Of a stretch of 64,000 bases of DNA, positions 13,633 to 64,000 are shown piece by piece (the stretch's first letter is position 1; each line of letters begins with the position of its first letter). The notes under the pieces are model-generated. The model worked only from the letters and a program-made list of their open reading frames with translations, had not been told where the DNA came from and searched no databases. The DNA is taken from assembly GCA_001824255.1 (NCBI GenBank), contig MHWQ01000002.1, positions 205,446-269,445 on the forward strand, read 5' to 3'. A program made the position numbers and the translations under genes. Origin of the DNA: Candidatus Zambryskibacteria bacterium RIFCSPLOWO2_02_FULL_51_21. Lineage in GTDB: Bacteria; Patescibacteriota; Minisyncoccia; Phycocordibacterales; Zambryskibacteraceae.

Positions 13633-13633
13633 T

Positions 13634-14614
13634 TTAATAAAGCTTAAGGCCGACTAATTTTCTCACCTCTTCCATCTTCTTCTCAGCCCGCTCGCGCGCC
13701 GTCTTGCCGCCGGATTTCAGAACTTCGAGTACCGCTTGCTTGTCTTCCTCCAGGGCCTGCCTTCTCTCGCGCATGGGAGTGATAACTTTCTTGATGTTTT
13801 TTATGAGGATTTCCTTCGACTCCTTGTAGCCGATTTTGCCCGCTTCGTAGCGGTCGCGAAGCTCGGCAAATTCCGGCCCTTCGGTGAAGAGTTTGTGCAG
13901 AGCGAAGACATTGTCTTTCTCCGGGTCCTTGGGCTCATCCGGCAACTTGGAATCCGTGACAATGCTCATGACCGCCTTCTCAATCTCTTCGTCTGTGGCG
14001 AAAAGCGGAATGGTGTTGCCGTAGCTCTTGCTCATCTTCCGGCCGTCGGTGCCGGGAACTGTCGCTACCTGGTCGAGTATGAGAACATCCGGCAGTTTGA
14101 ATGTCTCGCCGAAAGCGTTGTTGAACTTCTGCGCCGTGTCGCGGGCAATTTCGACATGTTGTTTCTGGTCCTGGCCCACGGGCACCACATCCGTATCTTG
14201 AATTAAAATATCCGCCGCCATGAGTATCGGGTAGTCGAAGAGGCCGACGTTCGGCTCTTTCTTATTGGCGATGGCGTCTTTGTAAGCATGCGCTCTTTCG
14301 AGATACGGCACCGTCGTGAGACAGTTGAAAATCCATGCCAGCTCGGCCACTTGCGGCACGTCGGATTGTTTGTAAATGGTGACATTCTTCGGGTCGAGAC
14401 CTATGGCCATATAGTCGAGAAGCACTCCGGCCGTATTCTCCTCAAGCTCCTCCTTGTTCTGCACGGTCGTCAGGGCATGGAGGTCGGCGATGAAGATGTA
14501 GCTCTCGAACTCATTCTGAAGCTCCACGAACTGCTTCATGGCGCCGAAATAGTTGCCGACATGCGGCCTCCCCGTCGGCTTCACCCCTGAAAGCAGTATC
14601 TTTTTAGATGCCAT
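13634..14614 (-). CDS. trpS: Tryptophan--tRNA ligase
   Basis: Class I HIGH-like (TGRPHVGN) and KMSKS motifs, about 326 aa. Confidence 0.9.
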   Translation of the reverse strand: MASKKILLSGVKPTGRPHVGNYFGAMKQFVELQNEFESYIFIADLHALTTVQNKEELEENTAGVLLDYMAIGLDPKNVTIYKQSDVPQVAELAWIFNCLTTVPYLERAHAYKDAIANKKEPNVGLFDYPILMAADILIQDTDVVPVGQDQKQHVEIARDTAQKFNNAFGETFKLPDVLILDQVATVPGTDGRKMSKSYGNTIPLFATDEEIEKAVMSIVTDSKLPDEPKDPEKDNVFALHKLFTEGPEFAELRDRYEAGKIGYKESKEILIKNIKKVITPMRERRQALEEDKQAVLEVLKSGGKTARERAEKKMEEVRKLVGLKLY

Positions 14615-14639
14615 ATGAAGCTATAATACCAGAGAAAAT

Positions 14640-16403
14640 TTAGGCTGTCAGGAAACCGCCGGCCTGGTGAGCCCAGAGTTCAGCGTAGACGCCGCCAAGT
14701 TTAAGCAGCTCATCATGAGTGCCATCTTCAATAACTTTGCCATCGTCCATTACCACCAAGCGATCCATGGATCTGAGGGTTGAGAGACGATGAGCAATGG
14801 CGATAACGGTTTTGTTTTCCATCAATTTCTTGAGCGCTTCCTGAATCATTACCTCGCTCTCGCTATCGAGGGCACTGGTCGCTTCGTCGAGCAGCAATAT
14901 TTTTGCATCTTTTAAGAATGCTCTGGCGATGGCCACTCTTTGGCGCTCGCCTCCCGAGAGCTTGATGCCGCGCTCCCCAACCAGAGTGTCGTATTTCTTG
15001 GGCAATGTGTCGATAAACTGATGTGCCTGAGCATGCGTTGCCGCCAGGATTATTTCCTCATCGGTGGATGGTATTTTGCCATACCCGATATTCTCCTTAA
15101 GCGAACGGTGGAAAAGAAGCGGATCTTGAGGCACCACAGCTATAGAACCGCGCAAGCTCTCCTGCTTAACCATGGCAATATCCTGCCCGTCAATTAGAAT
15201 CTTACCGCCCGAAAGATCGTACTGACGCATCAAAAGCTTCATCAAGGTGGACTTGCCGGCGCCGCTTCGACCAATCAAGCCAACGCGCTGGCCGGGCTCA
15301 ATGCACAGATTGAGTCTGTCGAAAATCTTTCGCGATTCATATTCGAAAGAAACGTCTTCCAATCTTATTTCTCCACGAGAAACCTCGAGATCTTTGGATA
15401 AGGGATGGTCGATAATATCGTGTTCGTGGAGAATATCGATCAAGCCCTCTCTGGCCTGGCTGATAGTCTCGGCGAAATTGTCGAAATTGCGGCCAATCCT
15501 GGCCAAATCTCCCCTAATGGACACAACGAGTGTTAGCACCAAGATCACGTCTCCAGCCGTAACAATACCTATGCTCCAAAGATAAGCGGCAAACAAAATC
15601 ATTCCTCCCGAGAAAATACTCTCGAGCACGTTGTTGAGAGTCATGGACCATTCGGAATAAGTCCAGTTTCTTAACCCCGCCCTGCGGCGGATGTCGATGA
15701 GATTCCTAATGCGGGCAAGTTCGAATCCCCGGCGCGCATAGTCGTGCATGGCGTTTATGTTGGTCAGCACATCGATAGTCTGAGCGCGCAATTCCGTTTC
15801 TCTTTCGTTGGCCGCAATGCTAAGAGGCATCTTTTTTCTCACCAGAGCTATGTTTATGGGAGCGATAACCAAAACCCAAAATACGAAGATCCAACCAACA
15901 TACAGATTGGTACGGAAAACAAGAATAAGACTGACCACCAGCGAGAGTAGAAAGCCCATCCATTCCCACAAGATTTCTTGGATAATATTTTTTACTCCGT
16001 CGCTTGCGTTGGTAATTTTGCTTCCCAGCGCTCCAGCGAATCTGCTGGAGAAGTAACCGTAACCATGACTGGTGACATATTCGGTTAATGTCTCTCTCAC
16101 CGTCGCCCGTACTCCTGTGACCCAGCGCGAACCGGCGAAACCGCTTGAGCGCCAACCCAAGGCCTCGGCGAAGGTAAAAACGATATAAATTAATGCCCAA
16201 AACAACACGCTTTCCGGGCCGAACCCGGCCGCACCATTAACGCTGTCAACCACGCGTTTGAAAACGTAGGGTACAAGAGAACCCAAGGTAGAGGCAAAAA
16301 TGACCGAAAAGACAGCCAAAAAGGCCGCCACTCGATAAGGCTTGGAGCTATAAAGCAAGAAACTGAATGGCCCTTTCGGGAGTTGTGGTACTTTTGCAGT
16401 CAT
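14640..16403 (-). CDS. ABC transporter permease/ATP-binding fusion (MsbA-like exporter)
   Basis: 6-TM domain plus Walker A (GRSGAGKST), signature LSGGERQ, Walker B. Confidence 0.85.
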   Translation of the reverse strand: MTAKVPQLPKGPFSFLLYSSKPYRVAAFLAVFSVIFASTLGSLVPYVFKRVVDSVNGAAGFGPESVLFWALIYIVFTFAEALGWRSSGFAGSRWVTGVRATVRETLTEYVTSHGYGYFSSRFAGALGSKITNASDGVKNIIQEILWEWMGFLLSLVVSLILVFRTNLYVGWIFVFWVLVIAPINIALVRKKMPLSIAANERETELRAQTIDVLTNINAMHDYARRGFELARIRNLIDIRRRAGLRNWTYSEWSMTLNNVLESIFSGGMILFAAYLWSIGIVTAGDVILVLTLVVSIRGDLARIGRNFDNFAETISQAREGLIDILHEHDIIDHPLSKDLEVSRGEIRLEDVSFEYESRKIFDRLNLCIEPGQRVGLIGRSGAGKSTLMKLLMRQYDLSGGKILIDGQDIAMVKQESLRGSIAVVPQDPLLFHRSLKENIGYGKIPSTDEEIILAATHAQAHQFIDTLPKKYDTLVGERGIKLSGGERQRVAIARAFLKDAKILLLDEATSALDSESEVMIQEALKKLMENKTVIAIAHRLSTLRSMDRLVVMDDGKVIEDGTHDELLKLGGVYAELWAHQAGGFLTA

Positions 16404-33307: not shown

Positions 33308-36067
33308 TCAAGAAGTCACGATATTTACCAGTTTTCTAGGGACATAAATCCTATTCTTGACTGCCTTATCCCCAACCCACTTTTGCGTTTCGGGGAGATT
33401 CTCTGCAAGCTCGAAAGCTTCCGCCTCATCGAGCGCTCTCAGCGCTTCGAATTTGCCGCGCACGCGGCCGTTGACCTGAACCACAATTGTAACAACTTCG
33501 CTCACAAGCTTCGTTTCATCGTACCCGGGCCAGCTCTGTGAATGAATTGAATCGCTGTGTCCGAGCGAGTGCCACAACTCTTCCGCCATATGCGGCGCGA
33601 ATGGTGCTAAGAGCTTTAGTAATGTTTCGTATTCTTCTTTGGAGATTTTCTCTTTCTTCTCCAAATCATTTACAAAAATCATCAGGGTTGAAATCGCAGT
33701 ATTGAAACGCATGTGCTCGATATCGCCGGTCACCTTTTTTATCGTTTGATGAGCGGAAGATGAAACTTCATCGAGCGAAGTCTGGCCATGCTTGCCGGAG
33801 GCAACATCCGAAGACTTTGTGAGAGGAAGTTTCGTCTGAAGTCTCCATATTTTCTCCAAAAATCTCCGCGGCCCGACCAGAGAACTCTCACTCCAGGCAA
33901 TTGCCTGTTCGAAGGGGCCCATGAACATCTCGTAGAGGCGCAGAGTGTCGGCGCCGAAACGTTCAACGATAGAATCGGGATTTATGACATTGCCTTTCGA
34001 CTTACTCATCTTCTCTCCCCCTTCGGCCAAGATAAGCCCGTGAGAAGTGCGCTTCTTGTAGGGTTCACTTACGGGCACAAGGCCTATGTCATATAGAAAC
34101 TTATTCCAGAAACGGGAATAGAGAAGATGAAGAACTGTGTGCTCCATACCGCCGTTGTACCAGTCCACGGGCATGAAATATTTGAAATTTTCAATTTGCA
34201 ATTTCCAATTTTCAGTAGAAACCGGATTCTCAAATCCTTTCTTATCGAATAGGTAGGCGAGAAAATACCAGGAGGAGCCGGCCCAATTGGGCATAGTATC
34301 TGTCTCGCGCTTGGCAGGACCGTCGCATTTCGGGCAAGTTATATTGACCCACTCATCTATCGCCGCGAGCGGCGACTCGCCGGTGTCGGTGGGCATATAA
34401 TTCTTTACCTCTGGGAGAAGGACCGGCAAATCTTTCTCCGGCACGGGCACTATGCCGCATTTATCGCAGTGCACAACCGGAATCGGTTCACCCCAGTATC
34501 TCTGCCTCGAGAAAACCCAATCACGAAGTTTGTATTTGACGACCTTCTTGCCGAATTTCTCCGTAATTTTCTCTCTGGCTTCTCCCGATTCAAGACCATC
34601 GAATTCATTGGAATTCGCAATGATTCCTTCTCCTGTATAGAAATCTTTGCCAGTCTCAATACGCTGTCTGATAATTTCTATTTCCGAGTGATTTATACGA
34701 ATAGTTTTGAATTCCTCTTTGGATATCCATTCGACTTCATGCTTTTCAAGCTCTTCTTCTGTTACGGTTTGACGGGCATTACTCTTTAATTCAAAAAACA
34801 GCAAGACATCATGAGCGATGCGATTAACTCCTTTATGAGCTGCATAAAATTCCGCTTGAGTATCCCCGCCAAGCCTTCTAATTAATTCGATATCTGTGTA
34901 TCCGGTTTCTTCCGTTATTTCTCTCTTGGCCGATTCTACGGCATTCTCTCCTTCTTCTATGCCTCCTGTTACAAAAGTTCTCCATGGAACTTTTTTCCAT
35001 TTCAGAGTGAGATACTTCTCCGTTTTTGGATCATAAACAATGCTTAAGGTGACTTTTCGCGCCACAATATCTTTGCCGTTTTGATGCGGATTGGTGGAAT
35101 CCGGCAGGCGCGGCGTTATCACGTGCTTAATCGGCAAATCGTGCTTCTTGGCGAACTCATAGTCGCGCTCGTCGTGCGCGGGCACCCCCATAATGGCTCC
35201 GGTGCCGTAGTCGAAGTAAACATATTCCGCTTCCCAGACGGGAATTTTTTCCCTGGTCGCGGGATTAATTGCGTAATCTCCAGTAAATTTGTCTTCTTTA
35301 CCCGCCTTGACCAAGAAAGTAGCACCGAAGATTGTGTCCGGCCGAGTCGTGAATACTTCTATATCATCAAATTTGATAAGCGCGCCTTCCGACTTCCCTA
35401 TCCAGTTCTTCTGCTGAACTTTGACCCGCTCCGGATAATCCACGGTGTCGAGGTCAGCCAGAAGTTTGTCGGCATACTTAGTGATGGCGAGCATCCATTG
35501 CTCTTTTTCCCGCTGTTCCACCGGCGTGCCACAGCGCTCGCACTTGCCGTCCACCACTTCTTCGTTGGCGAGGCCAATCTTATCCTTCGGACACCAGTTG
35601 ATGGGAATCTTCGCCTTGTACGCGAGTCCATGCTCAAGAAACTTCAAGAAGAGCCATTGAGTCCATTTGTAATACTTGGGGTCAGTCGTGTTAATCTCGC
35701 GCGACCAGTCGAAGGAGATGCCGAGCGACTGAATCTGCCTGCGAAAAGTGTCTGTGTTTTCCTTCGTAATTTCTGCGGGCGGACGGCCTGTTTTGATAGC
35801 GTAATTCTCCGTCGGCAAACCGAAAGCGTCCCAGCCGATGGGATAGAGTACATTCTTGCCTTCCATCCTTTTCTTCCTCGCAATGATATCCATGCCGATG
35901 TACGGGCGAGGATGTCCCACATGAAGACCGTCTCCGGATGGATACGGAAATTCTATAAGCGCGTAATATTTTTGCTTAGAAGAATTATCTTCTGCATTGT
36001 ATAGGCCATCTTTCTCCCATTCCTTCTGCCACTTAGACTCTATCTGTTTCGGGTCGTATTCTGTCAT
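33308..36067 (-). CDS. leuS: Leucine--tRNA ligase with reduced CP1/editing region and an inserted Nudix hydrolase domain
   Basis: HVGH and KMSKS motifs; TTRPDT...GTGA spacing only about 45 aa; canonical Nudix box GGIEEGENAVESAKREITEETGY at aa 368-390. Confidence 0.85.
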   Translation of the reverse strand: MTEYDPKQIESKWQKEWEKDGLYNAEDNSSKQKYYALIEFPYPSGDGLHVGHPRPYIGMDIIARKKRMEGKNVLYPIGWDAFGLPTENYAIKTGRPPAEITKENTDTFRRQIQSLGISFDWSREINTTDPKYYKWTQWLFLKFLEHGLAYKAKIPINWCPKDKIGLANEEVVDGKCERCGTPVEQREKEQWMLAITKYADKLLADLDTVDYPERVKVQQKNWIGKSEGALIKFDDIEVFTTRPDTIFGATFLVKAGKEDKFTGDYAINPATREKIPVWEAEYVYFDYGTGAIMGVPAHDERDYEFAKKHDLPIKHVITPRLPDSTNPHQNGKDIVARKVTLSIVYDPKTEKYLTLKWKKVPWRTFVTGGIEEGENAVESAKREITEETGYTDIELIRRLGGDTQAEFYAAHKGVNRIAHDVLLFFELKSNARQTVTEEELEKHEVEWISKEEFKTIRINHSEIEIIRQRIETGKDFYTGEGIIANSNEFDGLESGEAREKITEKFGKKVVKYKLRDWVFSRQRYWGEPIPVVHCDKCGIVPVPEKDLPVLLPEVKNYMPTDTGESPLAAIDEWVNITCPKCDGPAKRETDTMPNWAGSSWYFLAYLFDKKGFENPVSTENWKLQIENFKYFMPVDWYNGGMEHTVLHLLYSRFWNKFLYDIGLVPVSEPYKKRTSHGLILAEGGEKMSKSKGNVINPDSIVERFGADTLRLYEMFMGPFEQAIAWSESSLVGPRRFLEKIWRLQTKLPLTKSSDVASGKHGQTSLDEVSSSAHQTIKKVTGDIEHMRFNTAISTLMIFVNDLEKKEKISKEEYETLLKLLAPFAPHMAEELWHSLGHSDSIHSQSWPGYDETKLVSEVVTIVVQVNGRVRGKFEALRALDEAEAFELAENLPETQKWVGDKAVKNRIYVPRKLVNIVTS

Positions 36068-39758: not shown

Positions 39759-40064
39759 ATGGCTGAAGAAAAGCGTCCGTGCCACGAAGTCCTCTCGTCA
39801 ATGCTCAGTTTGATGGCTAACAATGCCTACAACGAGAAAGACGAGGTGAAAACCGTCCTCATCGTACTGCAGCAGAGCAGGTTCAAGGCTGCCGATGCCC
39901 ACAAGATCGCCGAAGATCACGCTGGGCTGCCTGGCATGCTGAGATCCATCCGCATGAGTGGTCTCGCCGAGTTCGCCGAGGAAGTCCTCGCCGACCTGCG
40001 CGGCCGCAAGGACGAGAAGAAGCCGGGGGTCAGCGCGGCGACGGCTTCAAACGTCGACGGATAG
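39759..40064 (+). CDS. Small hypothetical protein (101 aa), monocistronic, GC3-rich
   Basis: Promoter, RBS and strong terminator. Confidence 0.6.
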   Translation: MAEEKRPCHEVLSSMLSLMANNAYNEKDEVKTVLIVLQQSRFKAADAHKIAEDHAGLPGMLRSIRMSGLAEFAEEVLADLRGRKDEKKPGVSAATASNVDG

Positions 40065-40075
40065 GTCGAGGTCCC

Positions 40076-40120
40076 GAGCCCGCGAAGAGCCTGCGCTCTT
40101 CGCGGGCTCTTCTATTTTTG
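40076..40120 (+). terminator. Rho-independent terminator
   Basis: 15 bp stem GAGCCCGCGAAGAGC-CUGC-GCUCUUCGCGGGCUC then UUCUAUUUUUG. Confidence 0.75.
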
Positions 40121-40933
40121 GTTACACAAAGTTTCGAGCGCTTGGAGGTCGGCAGGGGTGGCGCGGAGGAAGTCGGCGTTGTTTATTTTATACATGATGG
40201 CCAAGGGGTCCGAGACGTGTTCGAGGCCGAGCGCGTGACCGAACTCGTGCGCGAGGAGCCGCACCAGCTTCGTCCGGCTGTCGAATTCGTAAATATTTAT
40301 CCCCTCCCCTTCCGGCCCGTTGTAATAAATGCCGCCCTCGAAAGTCTCGCCGCGCGCGGCGCCGACGGCGTTGTATTGGCTGACGTTCAGATTGAGACTC
40401 TTCGCCAGCTTATTCAATCTATCGGCAAGAGCGTTGAGTTCGGTCGCCTTGCCGTTGAGTTCATCTTCCAGAGACCTCAGAGCTTCAATTTCGGCATTGG
40501 TTACTCTCCTTTTGGATTGGAATTCCGCTACTTGCCTGTCATAAGCGCTTTTAAGCGAATTGTATTCGCTCTCAAGTCTTTTGTAAGAAGCCTCGAGCGA
40601 GTCGTAGCTTGTCTCGTTCGTCTTGAGATTGCTTTCTATAGACCCCAGCTCCTCCGTCGTCTCTTGGCGGTAGTCGTAAACCAGGTTTACCGGCAAGGCA
40701 CCACCCTCCGTCTTGTAAACAAAAAGGTCTCGGCCAGAAGGTCTCTCCCAAATCGCTTCGGCTTCGCTCAAAGCGGAGAGGAAATCTGTCCGGCTTACGT
40801 CAAAGCGCTGGTCGAAAGCGCCTATTTCATACGCAATAGGCCTAGTACAGGGAGGAACCGCGCCGCCGGGACCAACGGTGAACCACCAGGCTGCGGCGAC
40901 GAGAACCAGAAGGAAGCTTAGGGCCTTGAGCAT
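40112..40933 (-). CDS. Secreted zinc metalloprotease (zincin HExxHxxGxxH, matrixin/M10-like) with coiled-coil region
   Basis: Signal peptide, HEFGHALGLEH motif. Confidence 0.75.
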   Translation of the reverse strand: MLKALSFLLVLVAAAWWFTVGPGGAVPPCTRPIAYEIGAFDQRFDVSRTDFLSALSEAEAIWERPSGRDLFVYKTEGGALPVNLVYDYRQETTEELGSIESNLKTNETSYDSLEASYKRLESEYNSLKSAYDRQVAEFQSKRRVTNAEIEALRSLEDELNGKATELNALADRLNKLAKSLNLNVSQYNAVGAARGETFEGGIYYNGPEGEGINIYEFDSRTKLVRLLAHEFGHALGLEHVSDPLAIMYKINNADFLRATPADLQALETLCNQK

Positions 40934-41025
40934 TTACTTAATTATCTATGGTATAATCCCCTTGTCCAGCCGGAGAGACTTCTTAGGCCGGTATTAGGGA
41001 CTTAATTACCAATTACATTTAAATT

Positions 41026-41283
41026 ATGGCAAGAACTGCGAATCCGGCACTCCTTAGGCCCATGACCCTGTCTTCGGAACTCGAGGCAGTAGTGGGCAAA
41101 GGACCGATGCCCAGGGGCCAAGTGGTGAAGAAGATGTGGGAGTACATCAAGAAGAACGACCTCCAGAATCCTTCCAACAAGAGGAACATCTTCTCTGATG
41201 AGAAGCTTAAGCCCATCTTCGGCGGCAAGAGCGAAGTGACGATGTTTGAGATGACCAAGCTTGCTTCCGGACACATGAAGTAA
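41026..41283 (+). CDS. SWIB/MDM2 domain protein (85 aa)
   Basis: SWIB-like conserved pattern (..VVKKMWEYIKKNDLQNP..KR.I..DEKLK.IFG...V.MFEM.KL...H); extended -10 TGGTATAAT at 40949-40957. Confidence 0.6.
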   Translation: MARTANPALLRPMTLSSELEAVVGKGPMPRGQVVKKMWEYIKKNDLQNPSNKRNIFSDEKLKPIFGGKSEVTMFEMTKLASGHMK

Positions 41284-41310
41284 TTCGGGCTTGGGTCTGA
41301 GAGGAGAAAA

Positions 41311-41346
41311 CCAGCCCCGCCGCTCTGCGGCGGGGCTGGTTTTGAT
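41311..41346 (+). terminator. Rho-independent terminator after SWIB gene
   Basis: 13 bp GC-rich stem CCAGCCCCGCCGC...GCGGCGGGGCUGG followed by UUUUGAU. Confidence 0.75.
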
Positions 41347-41381
41347 AAAGAACGGCATCAGGTAGATTCTTTTTATCACAC

Positions 41382-41411
41382 TTGACATAGTGTCCTTTTT
41401 TGTATTAAGAT
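41382..41411 (+). promoter_or_regulatory. Promoter TTGACA-N18-TAAGAT upstream of sulfatase-like gene
   Basis: TTGACA 41382-41387; TAAGAT 41406-41411; partial inverted repeat GACA-TAG-TGTC overlaps the -35. Confidence 0.45.
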
Positions 41412-41491
41412 AATGAATAGAAGTTCGTTGGAATTCAGCACGCCAAGCCCAAACTTGGCCCACACAACCCCACACAGGAAGAAGGTAGACA

Positions 41492-43186
41492 ATGCGGAAA
41501 AGACTTGGATTCGCCGTGCTGGTCGCTATTCTCACGGGGGCCATCCTAACCCCCGCTCAGACGAAATCGAATGTCGTCGTCATCATGGCGGACGACATTC
41601 CCATGAGCGACATCACCACCATGGTGGCTCAAAGCCAGCTCCCCAACATCAAGGGGCTACTGGACACCGGAATCGAGTTCACCCAAGCCATTTCTAGCGG
41701 CTCGGTCGGCTCGACGGCGCGCATCTCTGTCCTCACAGGACAATACGCGCAGAACCACAAGGAGTTTGGAGCGGACCTCTTCTACGGAGGCCCGGTCCGA
41801 CACAACGAGGCGACCCTCTTGCCAAACTGGCTGCGGCCCGCCGGCTATATTACCGCGAAGGTCGGACGCACCATCCCAGGCTACGGCGCTGGTGATCTCA
41901 CCACTGAAGAGCTCCAGGGAATCGCCGCAATGCATCCGACCGTGACAGCTGAGCAGCTTCGTCTGTTCTACTCCACTTTCCCGAAGTGTTCGTACATGCC
42001 GCCGGGTTGGTCCATTTGGTTCGTTTTTTGCGAGCCGTGGACCTGGAGCGTCCACAAGTACAAGGCCTCTATCAGCGGGACCAAGATGGACTTCAGTTCA
42101 TACAACACCCCGGTGGAAAGGTGGCACCAGACCGACTTCGTAGCTGATGTCGGAGACTGGTTCATCAGGACAGCCGCAACTTTGGGAGCACCATGGTTTC
42201 TGGAGCTCGCTCCAGTCGCCTACAACCGCGAGTTATGGCCCGGGCCGGACGTTTACAACGTCTGTCCGGACCCCACGCAGCCACAAGCATGGTGGTACGG
42301 TGGACGATACTCGGGCGTCTCAGAAAGGCCGCCACTGCGCCACATAAACACCATCTGGAACGCGAATGACCCGAACGGCGTGGCACTAGCGTCGCTCGAC
42401 TTCTCGTTCCCCACGCCACCCTCATTCGACGAAGAGGATGTTTCAGACAAACCCACGTGGGTTCAGAACCTCCCGAGAATCTCTGCAGAGGACTTCGATT
42501 GCCTCCAGAAACGTTACTGGCGCCGGCTCGAGACGGTCAAGTCCATCGACGACCTGGTGGGCAAGGTGATGAAGGCGCTCGCGGAGACGGGCCAGCTCGA
42601 CAACACTTACGTGGTGTTCATGGCCGACAACGGAAACAACGACGGCCATCACCGCTACAACGAGAAGCTGTCGGCGTATGAGAATTCCCTACGGATCCCC
42701 CTCATCATCCGGCGGCCAGGCACGACTACTCCGGTCAAAGTGGACAAGCTGGTGCTGGGCGTCGATATCGCCCCGACCATCGCGGCCATCGCTGGAGCTA
42801 CGCCGAATATCGTGGTGGATGGCAGGTCTCTCCTGCCACTCATGGACAACCCCAGTTTGCCTTGGCGCAAGATGGGGCTCATCCAGCACACGCTCGGTGT
42901 CTGGGACGCAGGGGAAGCCACTACTGCTCCCCGTGAGTACTACGGGCTCCGGATCGGCAACGGTAACCCGCGCTTGTTCCTGAACTACCCCAAGGTGCAA
43001 ACCGGCGTCCGAGGGGAGTACTACAAGATGGCGACGGACCCGTATCAGCTCAATAACCTGTACGGGATGGCGACCACGGAGATAACCAACATCTCCCCAT
43101 GGCTCAACGCCATGAAGGTGTGTAGGGGCAACAACCCCACCACCGTGGGAAGCTGTGCGTGGTTGGAGAACAACTTCAACCGCTGA
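41492..43186 (+). CDS. Secreted sulfatase-fold hydrolase (alkaline phosphatase superfamily); canonical C/S-x-P-x-R formylglycine motif not evident
   Basis: Signal peptide, VVVIMADD metal-binding start, ...GSTARISVLTGQY where sulfatases have CxPxR...LTGRY; GC about 58-60%, GC3-rich. Confidence 0.65.
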   Translation: MRKRLGFAVLVAILTGAILTPAQTKSNVVVIMADDIPMSDITTMVAQSQLPNIKGLLDTGIEFTQAISSGSVGSTARISVLTGQYAQNHKEFGADLFYGGPVRHNEATLLPNWLRPAGYITAKVGRTIPGYGAGDLTTEELQGIAAMHPTVTAEQLRLFYSTFPKCSYMPPGWSIWFVFCEPWTWSVHKYKASISGTKMDFSSYNTPVERWHQTDFVADVGDWFIRTAATLGAPWFLELAPVAYNRELWPGPDVYNVCPDPTQPQAWWYGGRYSGVSERPPLRHINTIWNANDPNGVALASLDFSFPTPPSFDEEDVSDKPTWVQNLPRISAEDFDCLQKRYWRRLETVKSIDDLVGKVMKALAETGQLDNTYVVFMADNGNNDGHHRYNEKLSAYENSLRIPLIIRRPGTTTPVKVDKLVLGVDIAPTIAAIAGATPNIVVDGRSLLPLMDNPSLPWRKMGLIQHTLGVWDAGEATTAPREYYGLRIGNGNPRLFLNYPKVQTGVRGEYYKMATDPYQLNNLYGMATTEITNISPWLNAMKVCRGNNPTTVGSCAWLENNFNR

Positions 43187-43195
43187 AGACCATTC

Positions 43196-43252
43196 GCAAG
43201 GCGTGTCATGACTCTGCTTTCGCAGAAGCATGACACGCCTTGATTTATTTTG
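43196..43252 (+). terminator. Rho-independent terminator after sulfatase-like gene
   Basis: AAGGCGUGUCAUG...CAUGACACGCCUU stem with structured loop, then AUUUAUUUUGG. Confidence 0.7.
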
Positions 43253-43324
43253 GTGGACCTAGGCGGAATCGGACCGCCGTTTCGGCAATGCGAATGCCGT
43301 GTTCTGCCACTAAACTATAGGCCC
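43251..43324 (-). tRNA. tRNA-Ala (anticodon CGC), CCA encoded
   Basis: Manual cloverleaf: acceptor GGGCCUA/UAGGUCC with G3:U70, D-loop AGUGGCA, anticodon loop UUCGCAU, T-stem GGCGG/CCGCC; T-loop UCCGAUU has C at position 55; 5' end overlaps DedA stop codon. Confidence 0.6.
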
Positions 43325-43905
43325 TTTTTCCCCTTAAAATATTGGATAACCGGCGGAATCAAGGATACCACAACGATAAGCCCCACGATAGGCAAAACAT
43401 AGCGGTCCGCATCGGGAATCGACTGGCCGAAGAAATATCCCGCCGAGGTAAGGCCGACCGCCCAGATAAGAGCCCCGAAGAAGTTATAGAAAGTAAAAAT
43501 TTTGTACTTCATCTCCCCCACTCCGGCCATTACGGGGATAAAAGTGCGCACTATTGGAACGAAGCGTGCGAGCACTATCGCTTTCTTGCCATGCTGGTCG
43601 AAAAAGCTCCTGGTCTTCTCGATATTTTCCGGGCTGAACCAGAATGATTTGGGCCGAGAGAAAATTCTTGGGCCGATTTTCCTTCCAATCCAGTAACCGG
43701 TCGCGTCTCCGGCAAAAGCCGCGAGGAAAAACATGGGCAAGAGAAACTCTATGCGCAAGTACCCCTGCGACGCGAGAAATCCGGCGGTGAAAAGAAGCGA
43801 ATCCCCCGGCAGGAAAAAACCGACGAATATGCCCGATTCGGCATAAATGATGCCGAAAAGGCCGAGATATCCGGCTGTTTGAATCAAAGAGACGAGGTCG
43901 AACAT
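43315..43905 (-). CDS. DedA/SNARE-associated (TVP38/TMEM64) family membrane protein
   Basis: DedA signature region (GIFVGFFLPGDSLLFTAG...), multiple TM. Confidence 0.75.
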   Translation of the reverse strand: MFDLVSLIQTAGYLGLFGIIYAESGIFVGFFLPGDSLLFTAGFLASQGYLRIEFLLPMFFLAAFAGDATGYWIGRKIGPRIFSRPKSFWFSPENIEKTRSFFDQHGKKAIVLARFVPIVRTFIPVMAGVGEMKYKIFTFYNFFGALIWAVGLTSAGYFFGQSIPDADRYVLPIVGLIVVVSLIPPVIQYFKGKKGL

Positions 43906-43928
43906 TGACCCACTATATCATCGAAATA

Positions 43929-44189
43929 TTATTCGAGGAAAACCTGCGCGCCCTCCTTGGCTCTCTGCGAGAGCTTCACCGCCGCGTCGGCTCCTTTCTT
44001 CGCCTTATCCGCGTCGGCGTGGTCAATCTGGAGGGAGGAAACAGTCTCTTCGAACTCCTCATCCCCTTTCTTTATCTTTATCCTGTCGCCCTTCCCGAGC
44101 GGACCGGTGAGCTTTATCACGGCTACGCCGATCTTGTCGTACCAATGGGTAACGGTGCCTATCTGCTTGGCCATGCCTGTATTATACAC
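43929..44189 (-). CDS. Small hypothetical protein (about 81-86 aa), beta-rich N-terminal half and Lys/Ala-rich tail
   Basis: ORF track; likely start at internal MAKQIG (44174) with TATAAT 7 nt upstream (possibly leaderless). Confidence 0.5.
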   Translation of the reverse strand: MYNTGMAKQIGTVTHWYDKIGVAVIKLTGPLGKGDRIKIKKGDEEFEETVSSLQIDHADADKAKKGADAAVKLSQRAKEGAQVFLE

Positions 44190-44206
44190 CCGGGAGAATA
44201 TACCAG

Positions 44207-44280
44207 TGGACGATACAGGATTCGAACCTGTGACCTTACGAATGTGAATCGTACGCTCTAACCAGCTGAGCTAATCGTCC
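44207..44280 (-). tRNA. tRNA-Val (anticodon CAC)
   Basis: Canonical cloverleaf: GGACGAU/AUCGUCC acceptor, D-arm GCUC-AGCUGGUUA-GAGC, anticodon loop UUCACAU, T-arm ACAGG-UUCGAAU-CCUGU. Confidence 0.85.
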
Positions 44281-44284
44281 CTTG

Positions 44285-44355
44285 TGGACCCACGGGGAGT
44301 CGCACCCCGGACTCGTCCATGCCATGGACGCGTGTTACTGCTATACCATGGGCCC
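44285..44355 (-). tRNA. tRNA-Ala-like (anticodon GGC), degenerate D-arm and T-loop; possibly pseudo-tRNA
   Basis: Acceptor GGGCCCA/UGGGUCC with G3:U70, anticodon stem CGUCC/GGACG, loop AUGGCAU; T-loop UGCGACU (G55) and weak D-stem. Confidence 0.4.
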
Positions 44356-44410
44356 ATTTGCGGCTTTATTTTGCTTCATTTTTAAGATAGAATCAAGTTC
44401 GTTACTTTTC

Positions 44411-44435
44411 AAAAATGAGCCCCCGGCTCATTTTT
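44411..44435. terminator. Bidirectional terminator-like element AAAAA-UGAGCC-CCC-GGCUCA-UUUUU abutting tRNA-Ala(TGC) 5' end
   Basis: 6 bp stem, 3 nt loop, symmetric A and T runs. Confidence 0.5.
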
Positions 44436-44508
44436 GGGCCCTTAGCTTAGTTGGTAGAGCGCCTCATTTGCAATGAGGAGGTCAGCGGTTCGAATCCGCT
44501 AGGGTCCA
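44436..44508 (+). tRNA. tRNA-Ala (anticodon TGC)
   Basis: GGGCCCU/AGGGUCC acceptor with G3:U70, D-arm GCUU-AGUUGGUA-GAGC, anticodon loop UUUGCAA, T-arm AGCGG-UUCGAAU-CCGCU. Confidence 0.85.
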
Positions 44509-44512
44509 CAAA

Positions 44513-44555
44513 AGACACAAATGTCCCGCCTGCGCGGGACTTTGTGCTTTTGTGG
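44513..44555 (+). terminator. Rho-independent terminator after tRNA-Ala(TGC)
   Basis: Extended hairpin ACAAAUGUCCCGC-CUG-GCGGGACUUUGU followed by GCUUUUGUGG. Confidence 0.6.
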
Positions 44556-44807
44556 ATGGCGCAGGTATATCGAGGATGCCAATCCGAGATACCGAGCCGG
44601 GGTCGAGAAATTTTGTGAGCGACGGCGAACAAAATATTCGTGACCACAATAAATCTGCATGCGAAGCATACAAAATAAAATAACCCATGATGGGTTCTTT
44701 GTGCTCCACTCGGGCAGAGTGAAAGGTCGAAATTACCTCTAGAGAGTGCTTATAGTCCAGTATGATACCCGTATTCTAAACGTCTAATCTTGCATTAGTA
44801 GGGCATT

Positions 44808-45794
44808 TTGTATATGAAAAATATAATACTCATAGGATTTATTATTTTAACTCTCGGACTGTCTAGTATTGGCCACGCGGCTACCACTCCTACCTTATCG
44901 GACAGTTCGACGTATGCGATTCTTTCCAGTACCTATACCGATACGTCTGGCGCAACGACAATCAATGGAGACGTCGGCTTCACCACTCCCCCGGCAACCC
45001 CGCCACTTGGCACACAAACGAATTATGGAAGTGGAGCGCCATACTCTGTGGCTGGTACTGACCAAGCGGCCGTATTAGCTCTCTTGAATGCCCAGCCGTG
45101 CGATTTTACCTTCGGGGCTGCCACTGATTTGAGCCTGGAGACCCAGCCTCTCCAGCCGGGTGTTTATTGCATTACGGGAGCGCAATCTGTTGGGACAGCA
45201 GGGATCACATTGCTTTCTGGAACGTATATATTTAGATCAACGGGTGCTCTCAATACAGTGGCGAACTCCGTGGTTTCTGGTGGTAATGCCTGCGATGTTT
45301 TCTGGACACCAACGGCTACCACATTGGGAGCCAACTCTACTTTTTTCGGAACAGTGATTGATGACGCTGGAATCACAGTCGGAGCCGTAACTACATGGCT
45401 TGGCCGGGCGCTTGCTTTTGGGGGCACGGTTACGACAGACACTAATACCATCACAGTGCCTAATTGTGCTCCTGTGGTCCCCACACCACCCTCGCCTCCA
45501 GTCCCAACCCCTTCTTCTGGCTCATCGCATTCTGGAGGAACGAAGAGATGTGATACTTCTACCACACTTAGTTGCGAAGAATATTTCAGAAGCCCGGCAG
45601 TTAGCCCAGCAGTAAGTACGGTAGTTGCGGTACCTGAAGTGCTTGGAGTTTCAGTGTCTCCATATTCATATCCGACTCCATCGATGCCTAGTACAGGAGG
45701 GAGTCGTGATTACATGATCCATCTACTTCAACTTGCGAGCATTCTAATTGTTTCTGGAGGACTATCAATGTTCGTAGCAAGAAAAAGTAGATAA
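44808..45794 (+). CDS. Secreted DUF3494 (ice-binding-like beta-helix) family protein with C-terminal sortase-type sorting signal (MPSTGG-TM-RKSR)
   Basis: Signal peptide; N-terminal ...YAILSSTYTDTSGATTINGDVGFTTP... and C-terminal ...GRALAFGGTVTTDTNTITVP resemble DUF3494; Pro/Ser-rich stalk; lower GC about 45%. Confidence 0.5.
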   Translation: MYMKNIILIGFIILTLGLSSIGHAATTPTLSDSSTYAILSSTYTDTSGATTINGDVGFTTPPATPPLGTQTNYGSGAPYSVAGTDQAAVLALLNAQPCDFTFGAATDLSLETQPLQPGVYCITGAQSVGTAGITLLSGTYIFRSTGALNTVANSVVSGGNACDVFWTPTATTLGANSTFFGTVIDDAGITVGAVTTWLGRALAFGGTVTTDTNTITVPNCAPVVPTPPSPPVPTPSSGSSHSGGTKRCDTSTTLSCEEYFRSPAVSPAVSTVVAVPEVLGVSVSPYSYPTPSMPSTGGSRDYMIHLLQLASILIVSGGLSMFVARKSR

Positions 45795-46046
45795 TACATT
45801 TTGAAAATAAAATAATAGCCTCGGGCTGAAGACAAAAGGTTTTACATTGTTCCCGTAGGGCTCCACCCCTTGAGTGCTTTCTATAATCTGTTAATGTAAG
45901 AGCTAGAGTTTGCCCCGAGAGGAGGGGCCCACATGGGAGGCGGCCTCCTCTCGGAGGCGCCACGGCGCAGAACGGAAGAGTGGGATCGCCAGATCCCGCT
46001 TACTTCGCGCCGAAGCGCCCGATGTCGCACCCGCTCCCATTACACC

Positions 46047-46086
46047 GAGCCGGCCAGGCGATCCTGGCCGGCTTTTTCTATTTCTT
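46047..46086 (+). terminator. Rho-independent terminator in 45795-46094 intergenic region
   Basis: AGCCGGCCAGG-CGAU-CCUGGCCGGCU then UUUUUCUAUUUCUUC. Confidence 0.6.
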
Positions 46087-46094
46087 CTGCGAAA

Positions 46095-46292
46095 CTATTT
46101 TCTTCTGCCGAAGACCCCGTAGAGCACCACTCCGAGAATCGGGAAGACGAAGCAAGCCAATATCCAGAGAGTTTTCCATAAAACGCTCTTTCTCGTACCC
46201 AGGATGTCCATCATGGCCCATACAAACAATATAAGCCAAATGATAAACAGGACAGTCTTGAATGCCATGATGCCTGCGAAAGCTTCAACCAT
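46095..46292 (-). CDS. Small two-TM membrane protein, PLD-nuclease N-terminal (PLDc_N)-like
   Basis: 65 aa, two TM helices, C-terminal ...PILGVVLYGVFGRRK typical of PLDc_N family. Confidence 0.5.
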   Translation of the reverse strand: MVEAFAGIMAFKTVLFIIWLILFVWAMMDILGTRKSVLWKTLWILACFVFPILGVVLYGVFGRRK

Positions 46293-46376
46293 TTTTTTAA
46301 TTTTTATCTTTTAAAATCGGATTCGTTATCTACTCTTATAAATTATACTAGAAAATATAAAAAGTGAAACGTACAA

Positions 46377-51393: not shown

Positions 51394-51972
51394 TTACTTT
51401 TTCTCGCGCTCAAACCTGAGCACACTACCTGTAAAGTTCTTACCTGAGTCCTCAAAGCAGACTTCATAATCAACAGAATATTTTTCTGCTTCAGGAATAT
51501 GATTCTTTTTTATAAACCGGAATTCTCGAATCAGTCCCGTTGATTTCTTGAGAGGACAATCCTTAAGATGTTCCACGAGGTATTTTGCAAACATGAGCCA
51601 AGGAGGAATATTTGTTATATCGGAAGGAAGCCCAAACTGCTCAAGCATATTGTAGAGATTCCCCCTTAGATCTCCAAGAGAGAAGAACTGGTGATTGAAA
51701 TCTGAGTGATGAAATTTATCTTCAGGATGCTCAATGATAAATTTCTCCATTTCTTCCAGTGTTCCTCTGGCAAATTCCTTATTAGTGAGATTTGTGTGCA
51801 CAGCCCAATTGCACCAATGTTTAACTCTATCCCATTCAGGAAGACTGCTTCCATTTTCTTCTTCCATTTTATCTACCAGTCTTCTCAACTCGACCATTAT
51901 GTACACGACTCGCTCTTTTTCGATTGGTTTTTGTAAGGCTGACCTTAAGTTTTCTATTATTTCTTGTCTCAT
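51394..51972 (-). CDS. Hypothetical protein (192 aa), AT-rich (about 38% GC), start overlaps uvrB stop (TAATG)
   Basis: ORF track; strong compositional contrast with flanking uvrA/uvrB; His/Cys/Trp-containing, no recognisable domain. Confidence 0.6.
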   Translation of the reverse strand: MRQEIIENLRSALQKPIEKERVVYIMVELRRLVDKMEEENGSSLPEWDRVKHWCNWAVHTNLTNKEFARGTLEEMEKFIIEHPEDKFHHSDFNHQFFSLGDLRGNLYNMLEQFGLPSDITNIPPWLMFAKYLVEHLKDCPLKKSTGLIREFRFIKKNHIPEAEKYSVDYEVCFEDSGKNFTGSVLRFEREKK

Positions 51973-62112: not shown

Positions 62113-64000
62113 TTACTTATTCAATTCACTCCTAGTGAGCGGACCAACTGAACCAACTGGCTCTAGACCCCGGGCACTCTGGAAGGCAGTCACAGCGGCT
62201 TTGGTCAGTTCACCGAAGTAGCCGGTAATTGGCCCCAAGTAATAGCCTAAGCTCTTCAGTGTTTCTTGAAGTAGAGTCACCTCTGGGTCTCTTACTCCCA
62301 CATAAAGAGTTTCGGTAAACTTGTCGGAAGAGAAAGTTTGGTTACCAGTATTAGCCACCACCTGGAGCTGGTTAAGCTCATCGGCGATGGCCTGCAATTC
62401 CACTATGTAAGAGGTTAGGTTTACCAACCCAGGATCAGCGGCAATTCTCTGAGAGAGTAAGGCAAGTTTGTTTTGGACAGGCACAAGACGAGAGGGGTCA
62501 ATTGGCTTTAGCGCTTGATTATTGATAACGCCACCGGTACCCCCTCTATTGTTTGGGCTCGGAGAATCCCCAGGAGTCGTAGGAGGGTTAGTCGGTGGTG
62601 GCGAAGGCGGTGGAGGTGAGACACTGTATACAGATAAGAAGTCTTCTGCGGAATAACCATCAGCTCCAGTGTCATAGTTAATCTGCCACCAGTTGAATGA
62701 GTCTGCGGTCACTGGTCCGGATGTGACGGTGCCTAGACTACCGAGTGTTTGAGTACCGAGGAGTGTGCCTGTGGTATCTGCTGTGGCTCTGACGTTTATA
62801 TTAGTTGTTGCTTGGACTCTTTGACCTATGGTGAATTTGGCTGATGGGGTTGGAGGAGGGGGGGGTGGAGGTACTGGTGGAGGAGTAGTTTGGGTACCGC
62901 TAAATTCATAAGCTCCGATGTCCCAGGCGGGGCCTTGGGGGCGGGAGACGTTCCCAATGTCATACCGTATGCTTTGTCCCGGATACCTTGTTTCAAAAGC
63001 CGCCATAGCCGCAGATAATCCGCCCGTATCTATAGCGGGAGAACCAGCCTGAAGTTTAAAATCACCGCCCGCTGGATTAACAAGGAGTGGGTTAACATTC
63101 CTTGTGTTTATTGACTGAGCAGGAAATGCAGAATTAAACCCGGCAACATCGTATATTGAAGTCGTGCCCCACTGAATTCTTGCCGGAGAATTGAATATTA
63201 TATTGTTCTTCATGCTTCCCCCTGCAGAAATACTTGTATCAAAAAGCCAGATATCTCTTCCCTGAGAGTCATTTCTGTTGCCCAAAATATTATTTTCAAT
63301 AATTATTGACCCTGGAGCAGGAGTTTGTATTCCTGCCGAATAATTCCAAAAAGTATTATTCAGAATATACTTGGTGCCGGAATGCCGTAAACTCATAGCC
63401 GCATCAAGATGCGGATTATCCATTGAGCTTCCGTCACTATTGGTAACGTTCATAATGACATTGCCGATGAAAAATCCGTTAGGAACATTGGCGCTTCCGG
63501 TGCCTATCCCCACTTCACAATCAAGCATGTAATTGCCTATAAACCATATATAATCCGGATAATCACCTTGCATACCCATACAAGCACCCCCCGATGAGTT
63601 GCTGGGCCTAAAGCTTTGCAGTAAGTTCTGAGAAAATATCACATCAGTTGCGTCTTTCGTCCATAGACCAGTCTGCTTGTTGTTATGTGAATAGTTGCGT
63701 CCAATATATATTTTGTAAGGCCTGGCCCCGACGGCAGATGGTGAGTTCCCCACCTGCACTCCATCACCGCTGCAACGCGCCAGCTCGTTATCAAGCACCC
63801 AAACATTATTAGCCGCGCCCTCCATTTTTATGCAATGGATATCCTGATCATAAGTAGCATAAATATCACCCGCATCATGAATATAATTTTTATAAATTAC
63901 TATATACGCGGAGCTCCCAAACCCGATACCTCCTGAAGTTAAACTTCCGACGAGCTCATTATTACGGATTGATATGGCATAATTTGCCCCGATCTCAATT
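62113..64000 (-). CDS. Large secreted right-handed beta-helix (pectate-lyase-fold) protein with poly-Pro linkers, SH3-like domain and C-terminal peptidoglycan-binding (PG_binding_1) domain; N-terminus beyond window
   Basis: PbH1-like repeats (NNIIFNS..., GNVIMNV...), PPPVPPPPPPP and PPPPSPPPTNPP linkers, C-terminal LQETLKSLGYYLGPITGYFGELTKAAVTAFQ; reading frame open from 63825 to 64000. Confidence 0.7.
   Translation of the reverse strand, partial: IEIGANYAISIRNNELVGSLTSGGIGFGSSAYIVIYKNYIHDAGDIYATYDQDIHCIKMEGAANNVWVLDNELARCSGDGVQVGNSPSAVGARPYKIYIGRNYSHNNKQTGLWTKDATDVIFSQNLLQSFRPSNSSGGACMGMQGDYPDYIWFIGNYMLDCEVGIGTGSANVPNGFFIGNVIMNVTNSDGSSMDNPHLDAAMSLRHSGTKYILNNTFWNYSAGIQTPAPGSIIIENNILGNRNDSQGRDIWLFDTSISAGGSMKNNIIFNSPARIQWGTTSIYDVAGFNSAFPAQSINTRNVNPLLVNPAGGDFKLQAGSPAIDTGGLSAAMAAFETRYPGQSIRYDIGNVSRPQGPAWDIGAYEFSGTQTTPPPVPPPPPPPTPSAKFTIGQRVQATTNINVRATADTTGTLLGTQTLGSLGTVTSGPVTADSFNWWQINYDTGADGYSAEDFLSVYSVSPPPPSPPPTNPPTTPGDSPSPNNRGGTGGVINNQALKPIDPSRLVPVQNKLALLSQRIAADPGLVNLTSYIVELQAIADELNQLQVVANTGNQTFSSDKFTETLYVGVRDPEVTLLQETLKSLGYYLGPITGYFGELTKAAVTAFQSARGLEPVGSVGPLTRSELNK

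Follow-up and report, generated by a model that had tools for sequence, protein, structure and literature searches.

A mosaic, tRNA-rich segment of a Candidatus Zambryskibacteria genome is probably a conserved backbone with gene-by-gene insertions

The segment considered here spans approximately 40.1-46.3 kb (6.2 kb) of a 64-kb stretch of DNA, hereafter the window, from a groundwater member of Candidatus Zambryskibacteria (GTDB Patescibacteriota), which belongs to the candidate phyla radiation (CPR). It encodes an M10 metalloprotease, a SWIB-domain protein, a secreted sulfatase-fold protein, a DedA-family membrane protein, a DUF3494 surface protein and a cluster of tRNA genes. An earlier note, made from the letters of the window, had seen in it a laterally acquired or rearranged surface-interaction region. 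Our comparison with relatives indicates that the segment is probably a conserved Zambryskibacteria backbone whose variable slots have been filled gene by gene, rather than one integrative element. The observations in that note are largely correct and its interpretation is partly supported; what the locus displays is ordinary gene-wise genome plasticity.

Conserved gene order and single-gene slots

The inventory of the segment (Table 1) was built from the list of open reading frames (ORFs) together with Pfam (gathering scores), NCBIfam, ARAGORN and Rfam. The protein families that had been named from the translations (M10, SWIB, sulfatase, DedA and DUF3494) all score above their Pfam gathering scores where the note had placed them. 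Homologues of the M10 protease (523, many named Zambryskibacteria or Parcubacteria) served to locate three Zambryskibacteria relatives on long contigs (L013, L014 and L015), whose loci were compared over 10 kb on either side.

These relatives share a common gene order, which is fullest in L013 and L015 and reads UvrB-UvrA-UvrC-Ddl, tRNA-Ala(UGC), a variable slot, DedA, a response regulator and/or DUF5679 gene, M10 and ExoX. Past ExoX it continues with a 76-residue ORF, Flavodoxin_2, YchF, LeuRS and sigma-70; ExoX is absent from L015, and L014 covers part of the order, from the tRNAs onward. Identity of the encoded orthologues to those of the window ranges from 87% (UvrA) through 82-86% (sigma-70), 80-82% (YchF), 63-72% (LeuRS) and 63-68% (DedA, at the same place in L013-L015) to 55-60% (Ddl) and 47-51% (M10, in L013-L015). 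The M10 protease, DedA, tRNA-Ala(UGC) and tRNA-Ala(GGC) have syntenic orthologues in relatives and are therefore inherited core.

The differences among relatives are confined to single genes lying between core genes, so the locus is a backbone with one- or two-gene slots and not a block. SWIB, the sulfatase-like gene, the 86-residue ORF, the PLDc_N gene, the 101-residue ORF just outside the left border and small ORFs further left find no match in the L013-L015 loci, in which the backbone itself is kept. The term 'rearranged' holds locally, the block of tRNA and DUF3494 gene being inverted relative to DedA and Ddl when compared with L013; elsewhere, however, backbone order is maintained. Likewise, 'laterally acquired' does not describe M10, DedA or the two Ala tRNAs, which are syntenic in relatives, whereas the sulfatase-like and DUF3494 genes do carry signs of foreign ancestry, each singly.

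The reading favoured in the earlier note was that a single genomic island, inserted at the tRNA cluster and loaded with surface-interaction cargo, makes up the whole of 40.1-46.3 kb. Such an island would suit the three tRNA genes in the middle of the segment and the one beside the sulfatase-like gene, the several secreted or membrane proteins, the varying composition of the genes and the strong hairpins at either end. The segment also resembles tRNA-associated islands and prophage sites in having variable cargo beside a tRNA gene, in the difference of that cargo among relatives and in one gene with phage-like kin. Unlike them, it has neither an integrase nor a duplicated tRNA 3' end, its core genes are interleaved with the cargo, and its insertions comprise one or two genes. 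The absence of an integrase, already remarked upon in the note, is borne out by Pfam and/or NCBIfam, which reveal no integrase or recombinase among the gene-sized ORFs scanned from 36.0 to 47.3 kb. Direct repeats of tRNA 3' ends, for which the note had proposed a search, are not found between 38.5 and 47.5 kb; this interval has no att-like repeat, its repeats being limited to short ones at chance level and to the similarity of two Ala tRNAs. Nor is the block missing as a whole from any relative, as M10, DedA and tRNA-Ala are retained within it and only single genes differ. Three of the four features that define a tRNA-linked island (integrase, att repeats and whole-block absence) are thus wanting.

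The hairpins do not rescue the island. Strong hairpins do indeed stand at both ends, as had been noted, but equally strong ones follow SWIB and the sulfatase-like gene inside the segment (Table 1), and another GC-rich hairpin lies at 44523-44540. Each is found just past the end of a gene, in most cases where two genes converge, and with equally strong counterparts inside the segment they mark no special borders; those at the ends are ordinary convergent-gene terminators. Furthermore, the two genes of apparently foreign ancestry deviate in opposite directions (GC 0.59 for one, third-position GC, or GC3, 0.40 for the other), pointing to different sources. A single island, already contradicted by synteny, is accordingly very improbable. 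Under gene-by-gene filling of the backbone, each imported gene would have its own terminator, and the sulfatase-like gene a promoter-like site as well.

Table 1. Features of the segment and its immediate border, with positions in the window
Feature	Position	Strand	Evidence or remark
101-residue ORF, GC 59%, GC3 0.755, just outside the left border proposed in the earlier note	39759-40064	+	no Pfam or NCBIfam match
Perfect 15-bp GC-rich hairpin with T tracts, bidirectional terminator	40076-40109	.	between the convergent 101-residue ORF and M10
M10 (matrixin-type) zinc protease, membrane-anchored, coiled coil	40112-40933	-	PF00413, 34.7 bits against a cut-off of 24
SWIB/MDM2-domain protein, 85 residues	41026-41283	+	PF02201, E=1e-29
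Perfect 17-bp hairpin with A and T tracts on either side, terminator after SWIB	41307-41343	.	
Promoter-like site TTGACA-18-TAAGAT upstream of the sulfatase-like gene	41382-41411	+	consensus match only
Sulfatase-fold (alkaline-phosphatase superfamily) protein, 564 residues, signal peptide	41492-43186	+	PF00884, PF16347 (SGSH_C)
Hairpin with 21-bp arms after the sulfatase-like gene	43197-43242	.	
tRNA-Ala(CGC), CCA encoded	43251-43324	-	10-nt overlap with the DedA stop codon (43315-43324)
DedA-family membrane protein	43315-43905	-	PF09335 (VTT), 80 bits against a cut-off of 33.9
Small beta-barrel protein, 86 residues, weak EF-Tu domain-2 similarity	43929-44189	-	PF03144 below cut-off
tRNA-Val(CAC)	44206-44280	-	ARAGORN, Rfam
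tRNA-Ala(GGC), atypical	44284-44355	-	47 bits
tRNA-Ala(UGC), ancestral to the locus	44436-44509	+	73 bits
Terminator hairpin after tRNA-Ala(UGC)	44516-44547	+	inside the flank conserved with L013
DUF3494/ice-binding-like beta-helix protein, signal peptide, Pro/Ser/Thr stalk, MPSTGG tail	44808-45794	+	PF11999
12-bp hairpin	46047-46074	.	between the convergent DUF3494 and PLDc_N genes
PLDc_N small membrane protein, 65 residues	46095-46292	-	PF13396

Independent assemblies of the same junctions

Because the sequence derives from a metagenome and its GC content shifts from gene to gene, the mosaic might have been an assembly or binning chimera of fragments from different organisms. However, the DedA protein is present on 23 contigs. 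The contigs retrieved match the window at 99.5-100% identity, stem from mutually independent assemblies (NCBI, ENA and JGI) and cover every junction, the short ones covering the DedA-DUF3494-PLDc_N junctions and the longer ones SWIB-sulfatase-DedA. Two further contigs also place a sulfatase gene between M10 and DedA. The recurrence of the same junctions in independent assemblies means that the region is not an artefact, and a chimera is excluded. Gene differences in contigs L001-L010 were considered and set aside as gaps of N within one population at 99.5-100% identity. The NCBI name attached to the proteins is Candidatus Zambryskibacteria bacterium.

A sulfatase-fold gene of likely non-CPR ancestry

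The slot between DedA and M10 holds a response regulator and/or DUF5679 in the relatives, and in the window lineage is occupied instead by SWIB and the secreted sulfatase-fold gene. The two best homologues of the sulfatase-like protein (83% and 77% identical) are encoded on short contigs in the order M10-DUF5679-sulfatase-DedA, that is, in this same slot. Homologues at the next level, 55-60% identity, have as neighbours genes for a sigma-54 activator, citrate synthase, PQQ dehydrogenase, cytochrome c and peptidase S10, gene types not normally present in CPR bacteria, and their contigs have a GC content of 68% in the two whose DNA was measured. In a neighbour-joining tree, the three CPR sequences group as a single clade that nests within the non-CPR homologues. 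Metagenome scans with the protein, used singly or as an alignment, returned no match.

These relationships suggest that the gene was likely acquired horizontally from high-GC, non-CPR bacteria of soil or sediment, a direction of transfer that we infer from the nesting, and its GC content of 59% would fit import from such a donor followed by partial amelioration. We envisage entry into a Zambryskibacteria ancestor; today no fewer than three lineages share the gene in the same slot, and its composition would be partly ameliorated. Its subsequent path has two candidate explanations. The M10 protease beside the 83% homologue is only 51% identical to that of the window, and 61% identical to that of L013, which has no sulfatase; either loss in several lineages or re-transfer between Zambryskibacteria lineages into the homologous slot could account for this pattern.

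The predicted fold is sound, with a PF00884 score of 109 bits against a cut-off of 25 and a signal peptide, but the nucleophile motif has been lost. The best PDB matches, 7P24 and 5G2V, are S1 sulfatases (GlcNAc-6-sulfatase, mucin-desulfating), with which the protein shares the Sulfatase and SGSH_C domains, the N-terminal DD and the later DNG, Lys and Arg positions, and the signal peptide. D34, D35, D379 and N380 are invariant in an alignment of the eight closest sequences, their role as metal ligands (Asp-Asp and Asp-Asn) being assigned by homology, and the downstream Lys and Arg are also invariant. In contrast, the C/S-x-P-x-R nucleophile motif of S1 sulfatases is G-S-T-A-R in the window (residues ~70-83), with Gly where the formylglycine would form and Thr replacing Pro; GSTAR aligns opposite CCPSR of canonical homologues and SGPSR of 7P24. 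The His of the GKWH type also appears, on reading the sequence, to have been replaced (K-V-G-R).

Replacement of the formylglycine motif CCPSR by G[SAG][TPS][ATS]R extends throughout the clade, non-CPR members included. The loss is monophyletic, the clade comprising hits down to approximately 35% identity. With Gly at the formylglycine position, the defining feature of an S1 sulfatase fails, and the classical formylglycine mechanism cannot, as judged from the alignment, operate in this protein. If it is catalytic at all, it would instead be a formylglycine-independent, metal-dependent member of the alkaline-phosphatase superfamily, acting as a hydrolase or a binding protein without the help of a maturation enzyme.

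A variable surface-protein slot beside tRNA-Ala(UGC)

The second variable slot adjoins tRNA-Ala(UGC) and holds a gene for a DUF3494 beta-helix protein that would be exported through Sec. PF11999 matches the protein at 63.2 bits against a threshold of 28.7 over the whole profile (positions 1-208 of 208). Its C-terminal tail after the sorting motif is LLQLASILIVSGGLSMFVARKSR, so that the arrangement described in the earlier note, a DUF3494-like protein with MPSTGG, a hydrophobic segment and RKSR at its C terminus, is confirmed. The family is widespread in CPR bacteria, several of its homologues being annotated as Gracilibacteria, Nomurabacteria, Uhrbacteria or Patescibacteria. Among the best 120 homologues, Leu occupies the first motif position in 74 (LPNTG, LPKTG and the like) and Phe in about 15; a hydrophobic stretch and then a basic tail usually come after the motif.

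With LPXTG sortase substrates of CPR bacteria (Patescibacteria) that carry PF11999, the window protein shares a signal peptide, beta-helix, Pro/Thr/Ser stalk, pentapeptide, hydrophobic stretch and basic tail. It differs from them in having Met for Leu (MPSTG), a variant common to the L013 protein; ice binding is not implied by the domain. MPSTG is probably a Leu-to-Met variant of the LPXTG-type sortase signal, and the protein is presumably anchored by sortase. Sortases have been reported from over half of CPR genomes (PMC6744442).

The occupant of the slot differs among relatives. In L013 a DUF3494 gene directly follows tRNA-Ala(UGC), as it does in the window; the two proteins are 30% identical and share the stalk KRCDT..C.EYF and MPSTGGS. 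L015 has two unrelated Cys-rich membrane proteins at this place. The closest relationships lie elsewhere: residues 8-221 of the window protein are 81% identical (76% at the nucleotide level) to P0257 on the phage-like contig L017 (gene at 10001-10972), and the protein is 76% identical to P0265 on L018 (804-1691) and 70% identical to P0258 on L019 (636-1589), the last including the KRCDT..C.EYF stalk. Nucleotide similarity between the window and these contigs ends at domain borders.

The three contigs have GC contents of 42% (L017), 38% (L018) and 44% (L019). L017 presents a run of large unannotated proteins, DUF3494, a papain-like/PG-binding endolysin-like protein, small membrane proteins, NinG and a DnaD-like loader (E=1e-56), while L018 encodes HNH, NinB, NinG, an SSB-like protein and Phage_rep_org_N. 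Gene order on L019 matches that of the other phage-like contigs, and its DUF3494 copy ends in an IPNTG anchor. The endolysin-like protein of L017 matches viral contigs only through its PG-binding domain. GC3 of the phage-like copies is 0.29-0.35, and that of the window gene 0.40. The copies retain their signal peptide, which indicates exported proteins and not parts of the virion. We also observed that the phage-like DUF3494 genes immediately precede holin-like and PG-binding endolysin-like genes, and that the copies other than that of L019 end in a different C-terminal domain, finishing in ...IDP.

From these similarities we conclude that the locus beside the ancestral tRNA-Ala(UGC) is probably a variable surface-protein slot whose cassette is shared with phage-like elements of low GC and would have been exchanged with them. 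Our literature search found nothing linking DUF3494 to CPR bacteria, and the single paper to mention 'DUF3494' together with 'phage' proved unrelated.

Composition, vertical descent and points of doubt

Composition was judged against a reference of 12 core genes with syntenic orthologues (GC 0.511 +/- 0.023, GC3 0.631 +/- 0.051). The window has a GC content of 51.8%, and GC per gene is broad (mean 0.523, standard deviation (sd) 0.039, n=58); the relatives L013-L015, by comparison, have a GC content of 44-46%. The sulfatase-like gene (GC 0.592, GC3 0.763) lies 3.5 sd above the core genes in GC, whereas the DUF3494 gene (GC 0.494, GC3 0.401) lies 4.5 sd below them in GC3, so that the two are outliers in opposite directions. 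GC3 of the latter falls to 0.24-0.27 at its 3' end, against 0.63 in its own genome. The figures given in the earlier note agree with ours for the sulfatase-like gene and for the window, but not for the DUF3494 gene, whose GC is 49.4% and not 45%, its deviation residing in GC3. Examined in windows, the segment as a whole is unexceptional, since approximately 20% of windows of equal length match or exceed its 500-bp GC variance. Equally extreme genes lie outside the segment, among them a 192-residue ORF between uvrB and uvrA (GC3 0.37) and the core gene scpB (GC3 0.44).

Such breadth of composition invites the alternative that everything in the segment is of vertical descent, the relatives having lost genes and composition reflecting amino-acid content, expression level or patchy genome GC. 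The wide per-gene spread, the GC3 of 0.44 in core scpB, the occurrence of the sulfatase-like gene in one slot across three lineages and the 20% of same-sized windows that equal the segment in heterogeneity are all consistent with it. However, vertical descent does not readily explain why the CPR sulfatases nest within homologues from 68%-GC, non-CPR contigs, which at 55-60% identity are the closest outside the three lineages, nor why the sulfatase is 83% identical where the adjoining M10 is 51% identical and the lineage with the closer M10 has no sulfatase. Equally, the DUF3494 protein is 81% identical to the product of a gene on a phage-like contig and 30% identical to that of the syntenic gene in L013. 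We consider purely vertical descent unlikely, and prefer a conserved backbone whose slots are filled gene by gene.

Several points weigh against this preference. Long flanks were available for only three relatives, none of them close (47-87% protein identity), and absence from a locus of 10 kb on either side does not equal absence from the genome. Composition alone is weak evidence for foreign origin, because low GC3 is found in the window also in the core gene scpB. For the sulfatase-like gene, the neighbour-joining tree carries no support values, and genomic context was examined for three of the five nearest non-Zambryskibacteria homologues. For the DUF3494 gene, no sortase (TLxTC-type ORF) is encoded in the 64-kb window, and the phage-like label of L017-L019 derives from PHROG and Pfam gene content alone, with no capsid or terminase gene identified on these contigs. 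Scans of IMG/VR and INPHARED with the DUF3494 protein, singly or as an alignment, gave no match, nor did tblastn against INPHARED, and the large L017 protein tested had no match in IMG/VR. Finally, transfer of the DUF3494 cassette may have run either way between chromosome and phage-like element.

Core proteins and the tRNA cluster

By homology, the core genes are shown to have predicted roles in the envelope and in housekeeping, comprising an anchored zinc protease, DedA, and a full set of Ala isoacceptors with Val(CAC). The HEFGHALGLEH metalloprotease of the earlier note is upheld, as this motif and a Met-turn (AIMY) are readable in the translation and PF00413 scores above its cut-off. The protein shares these features, including HExxHxxGxxH, with the matrixins (M10). 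It differs from them in that the Pfam match is restricted to the last third of the model (profile positions 103-152) and that the catalytic part comes after a membrane anchor at the N terminus and a long coiled coil, a form typical of Parcubacteria. DedA is shown by homology to be a putative membrane transporter related to undecaprenyl-phosphate flippases; it matches the NCBIfam DedA model at E=1e-48, under that equivalog's own cut-off. A profile search of genome contigs with DedA yielded as its sole match an archaeal DedA of 43% identity, which adds no synteny information.

Both ARAGORN and Rfam (threshold 29 bits) recover the four tRNA genes, three of them Ala, that the earlier note had recognized, and the one that overlaps the DedA stop codon is tRNA-Ala(CGC). 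All three Ala tRNA genes score 47-73 bits and possess the G3:U70 pair. The weakest is tRNA-Ala(GGC) (47 bits, versus 62-73 for the others), in which the GG of the D-loop is missing, the T-loop reads TGCGACT in place of TTCGACT, and the D-stem contains one mismatch. These changes are what had been called degenerate; however, the term overstates the case, as the score remains above threshold and G3:U70 is retained. Judging from its sequence, the gene may be either decaying or stabilized by compensated changes. Both partners of the tertiary contact between D-loop and T-loop appear changed (assigned here to positions 18 and 55). Its orthologue in L014, adjoining DedA, is 82% identical and has canonical loops.

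Copies of tRNA-Ala(UGC) that are 95-97% identical lie between Ddl and DedA in L013, L014 and L015, and the divergent pair of tRNA-Ala(GGC) and tRNA-Ala(UGC) beside DedA is common to the window and L014. No counterpart of tRNA-Ala(CGC) or tRNA-Val(CAC) is found in the L013-L015 loci. Co-transfer of tRNA-Val(CAC) with the sulfatase-like gene was considered, as contig L011 carries such a tRNA directly upstream of a 60% homologue, and was rejected, the 75% likeness of the two tRNAs being background.

Conservation at tRNA-Ala(UGC) extends beyond the gene. Positions 44408-44610 of the window are 84% identical over 209 nt to L013 7070-7277, set against proteins that are 50-87% identical. The conserved block consists of the tRNA, a hairpin approximately 30 nt upstream and approximately 100 nt downstream (to 44610) with a long terminator stem. 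Further conserved patches follow downstream in this alignment. A structured RNA 3' of the tRNA was considered and discarded, since a permissive Rfam scan was empty and the terminator hairpin and shared leader explain the conservation with L013.

Other variable positions and neighbouring genes

SWIB occupies the position at which the relatives carry, on the opposite strand, a DUF5679 zinc-ribbon gene beside M10 (L013 9770-9931, L014 1779-1940, L015 9841-9999). SWIB and DUF5679 domains are both found fused to topoisomerases elsewhere, and SWIB, standing where DUF5679 is expected, may be a non-orthologous substitute, one small DNA-associated protein having taken the place of another. The 101-residue ORF lies where M10 and ExoX are adjacent in the relatives (ExoX being absent from L015), and tblastn finds no match to it there.

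Variation of the same kind occurs along the rest of the backbone. The 192-residue ORF between uvrB and uvrA (51394-51972, minus strand; GC 38.5%) has no Pfam match and no counterpart in L013, where the two genes are adjacent; it constitutes another single-gene insertion in the window. L015 contains at 12703-15178 a restriction-modification cassette (DNA methylase, NgoFVII-type endonuclease and Vsr) between Flavodoxin_2 and YchF, indicating that other slots of the backbone also take cargo.

Two further genes of the window deserve mention. At 62113-63825 (minus strand), a protein of 570 residues (GC3 0.43) combines a right-handed beta-helix with a C-terminal PG_binding_1 domain; it would be another exported, wall-associated protein, again atypical in composition. 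The LeuRS of the window (33308-36067, minus strand; 919 residues) has a NUDIX domain (PF00293, residues 341-463, motif GGIEEGENAVESAKREITEETGY) inserted at its editing (CP1) domain. This insertion is also present in L013 (902 residues) and L015 (909 residues) and not in L014 (716 residues); a literature search found nothing on Nudix-bearing LeuRS in CPR bacteria.

Biological implications

The exported sulfatase-fold protein and the presumably wall-anchored beta-helix protein might plausibly act on, or bind, extracellular polymers or those of a partner cell. A bolder proposal, which we advance tentatively and regard as rather doubtful, is that DUF3494 phage cassettes beside lysis genes recombine into the slot after tRNA-Ala(UGC), allowing phages to remodel the surface of ultra-small, probably host-attached bacteria, and that, separately, the sulfatase-like proteins form a formylglycine-free branch with a new activity or a purely binding role. 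If this were true, phages could remodel the surface by lysogenic conversion, by superinfection exclusion or by exchanging adhesins, and the sulfatase branch would have been taken up by an organism probably unable to mature classical sulfatases.

Two leads thus emerge, namely a monophyletic sulfatase-fold clade that has dispensed with the formylglycine nucleophile, and a beta-helix domain shared at high identity by a CPR chromosome and phage-like contigs. Neither alters current concepts without experimental follow-up. Taken together, our findings document that a CPR lineage has likely received a gene from ordinary bacteria of soil or sediment, and they correct the reading of this segment as an island: here, streamlined genomes probably vary by gene-wise insertion into a stable backbone and not by the gain of classical integrative islands.

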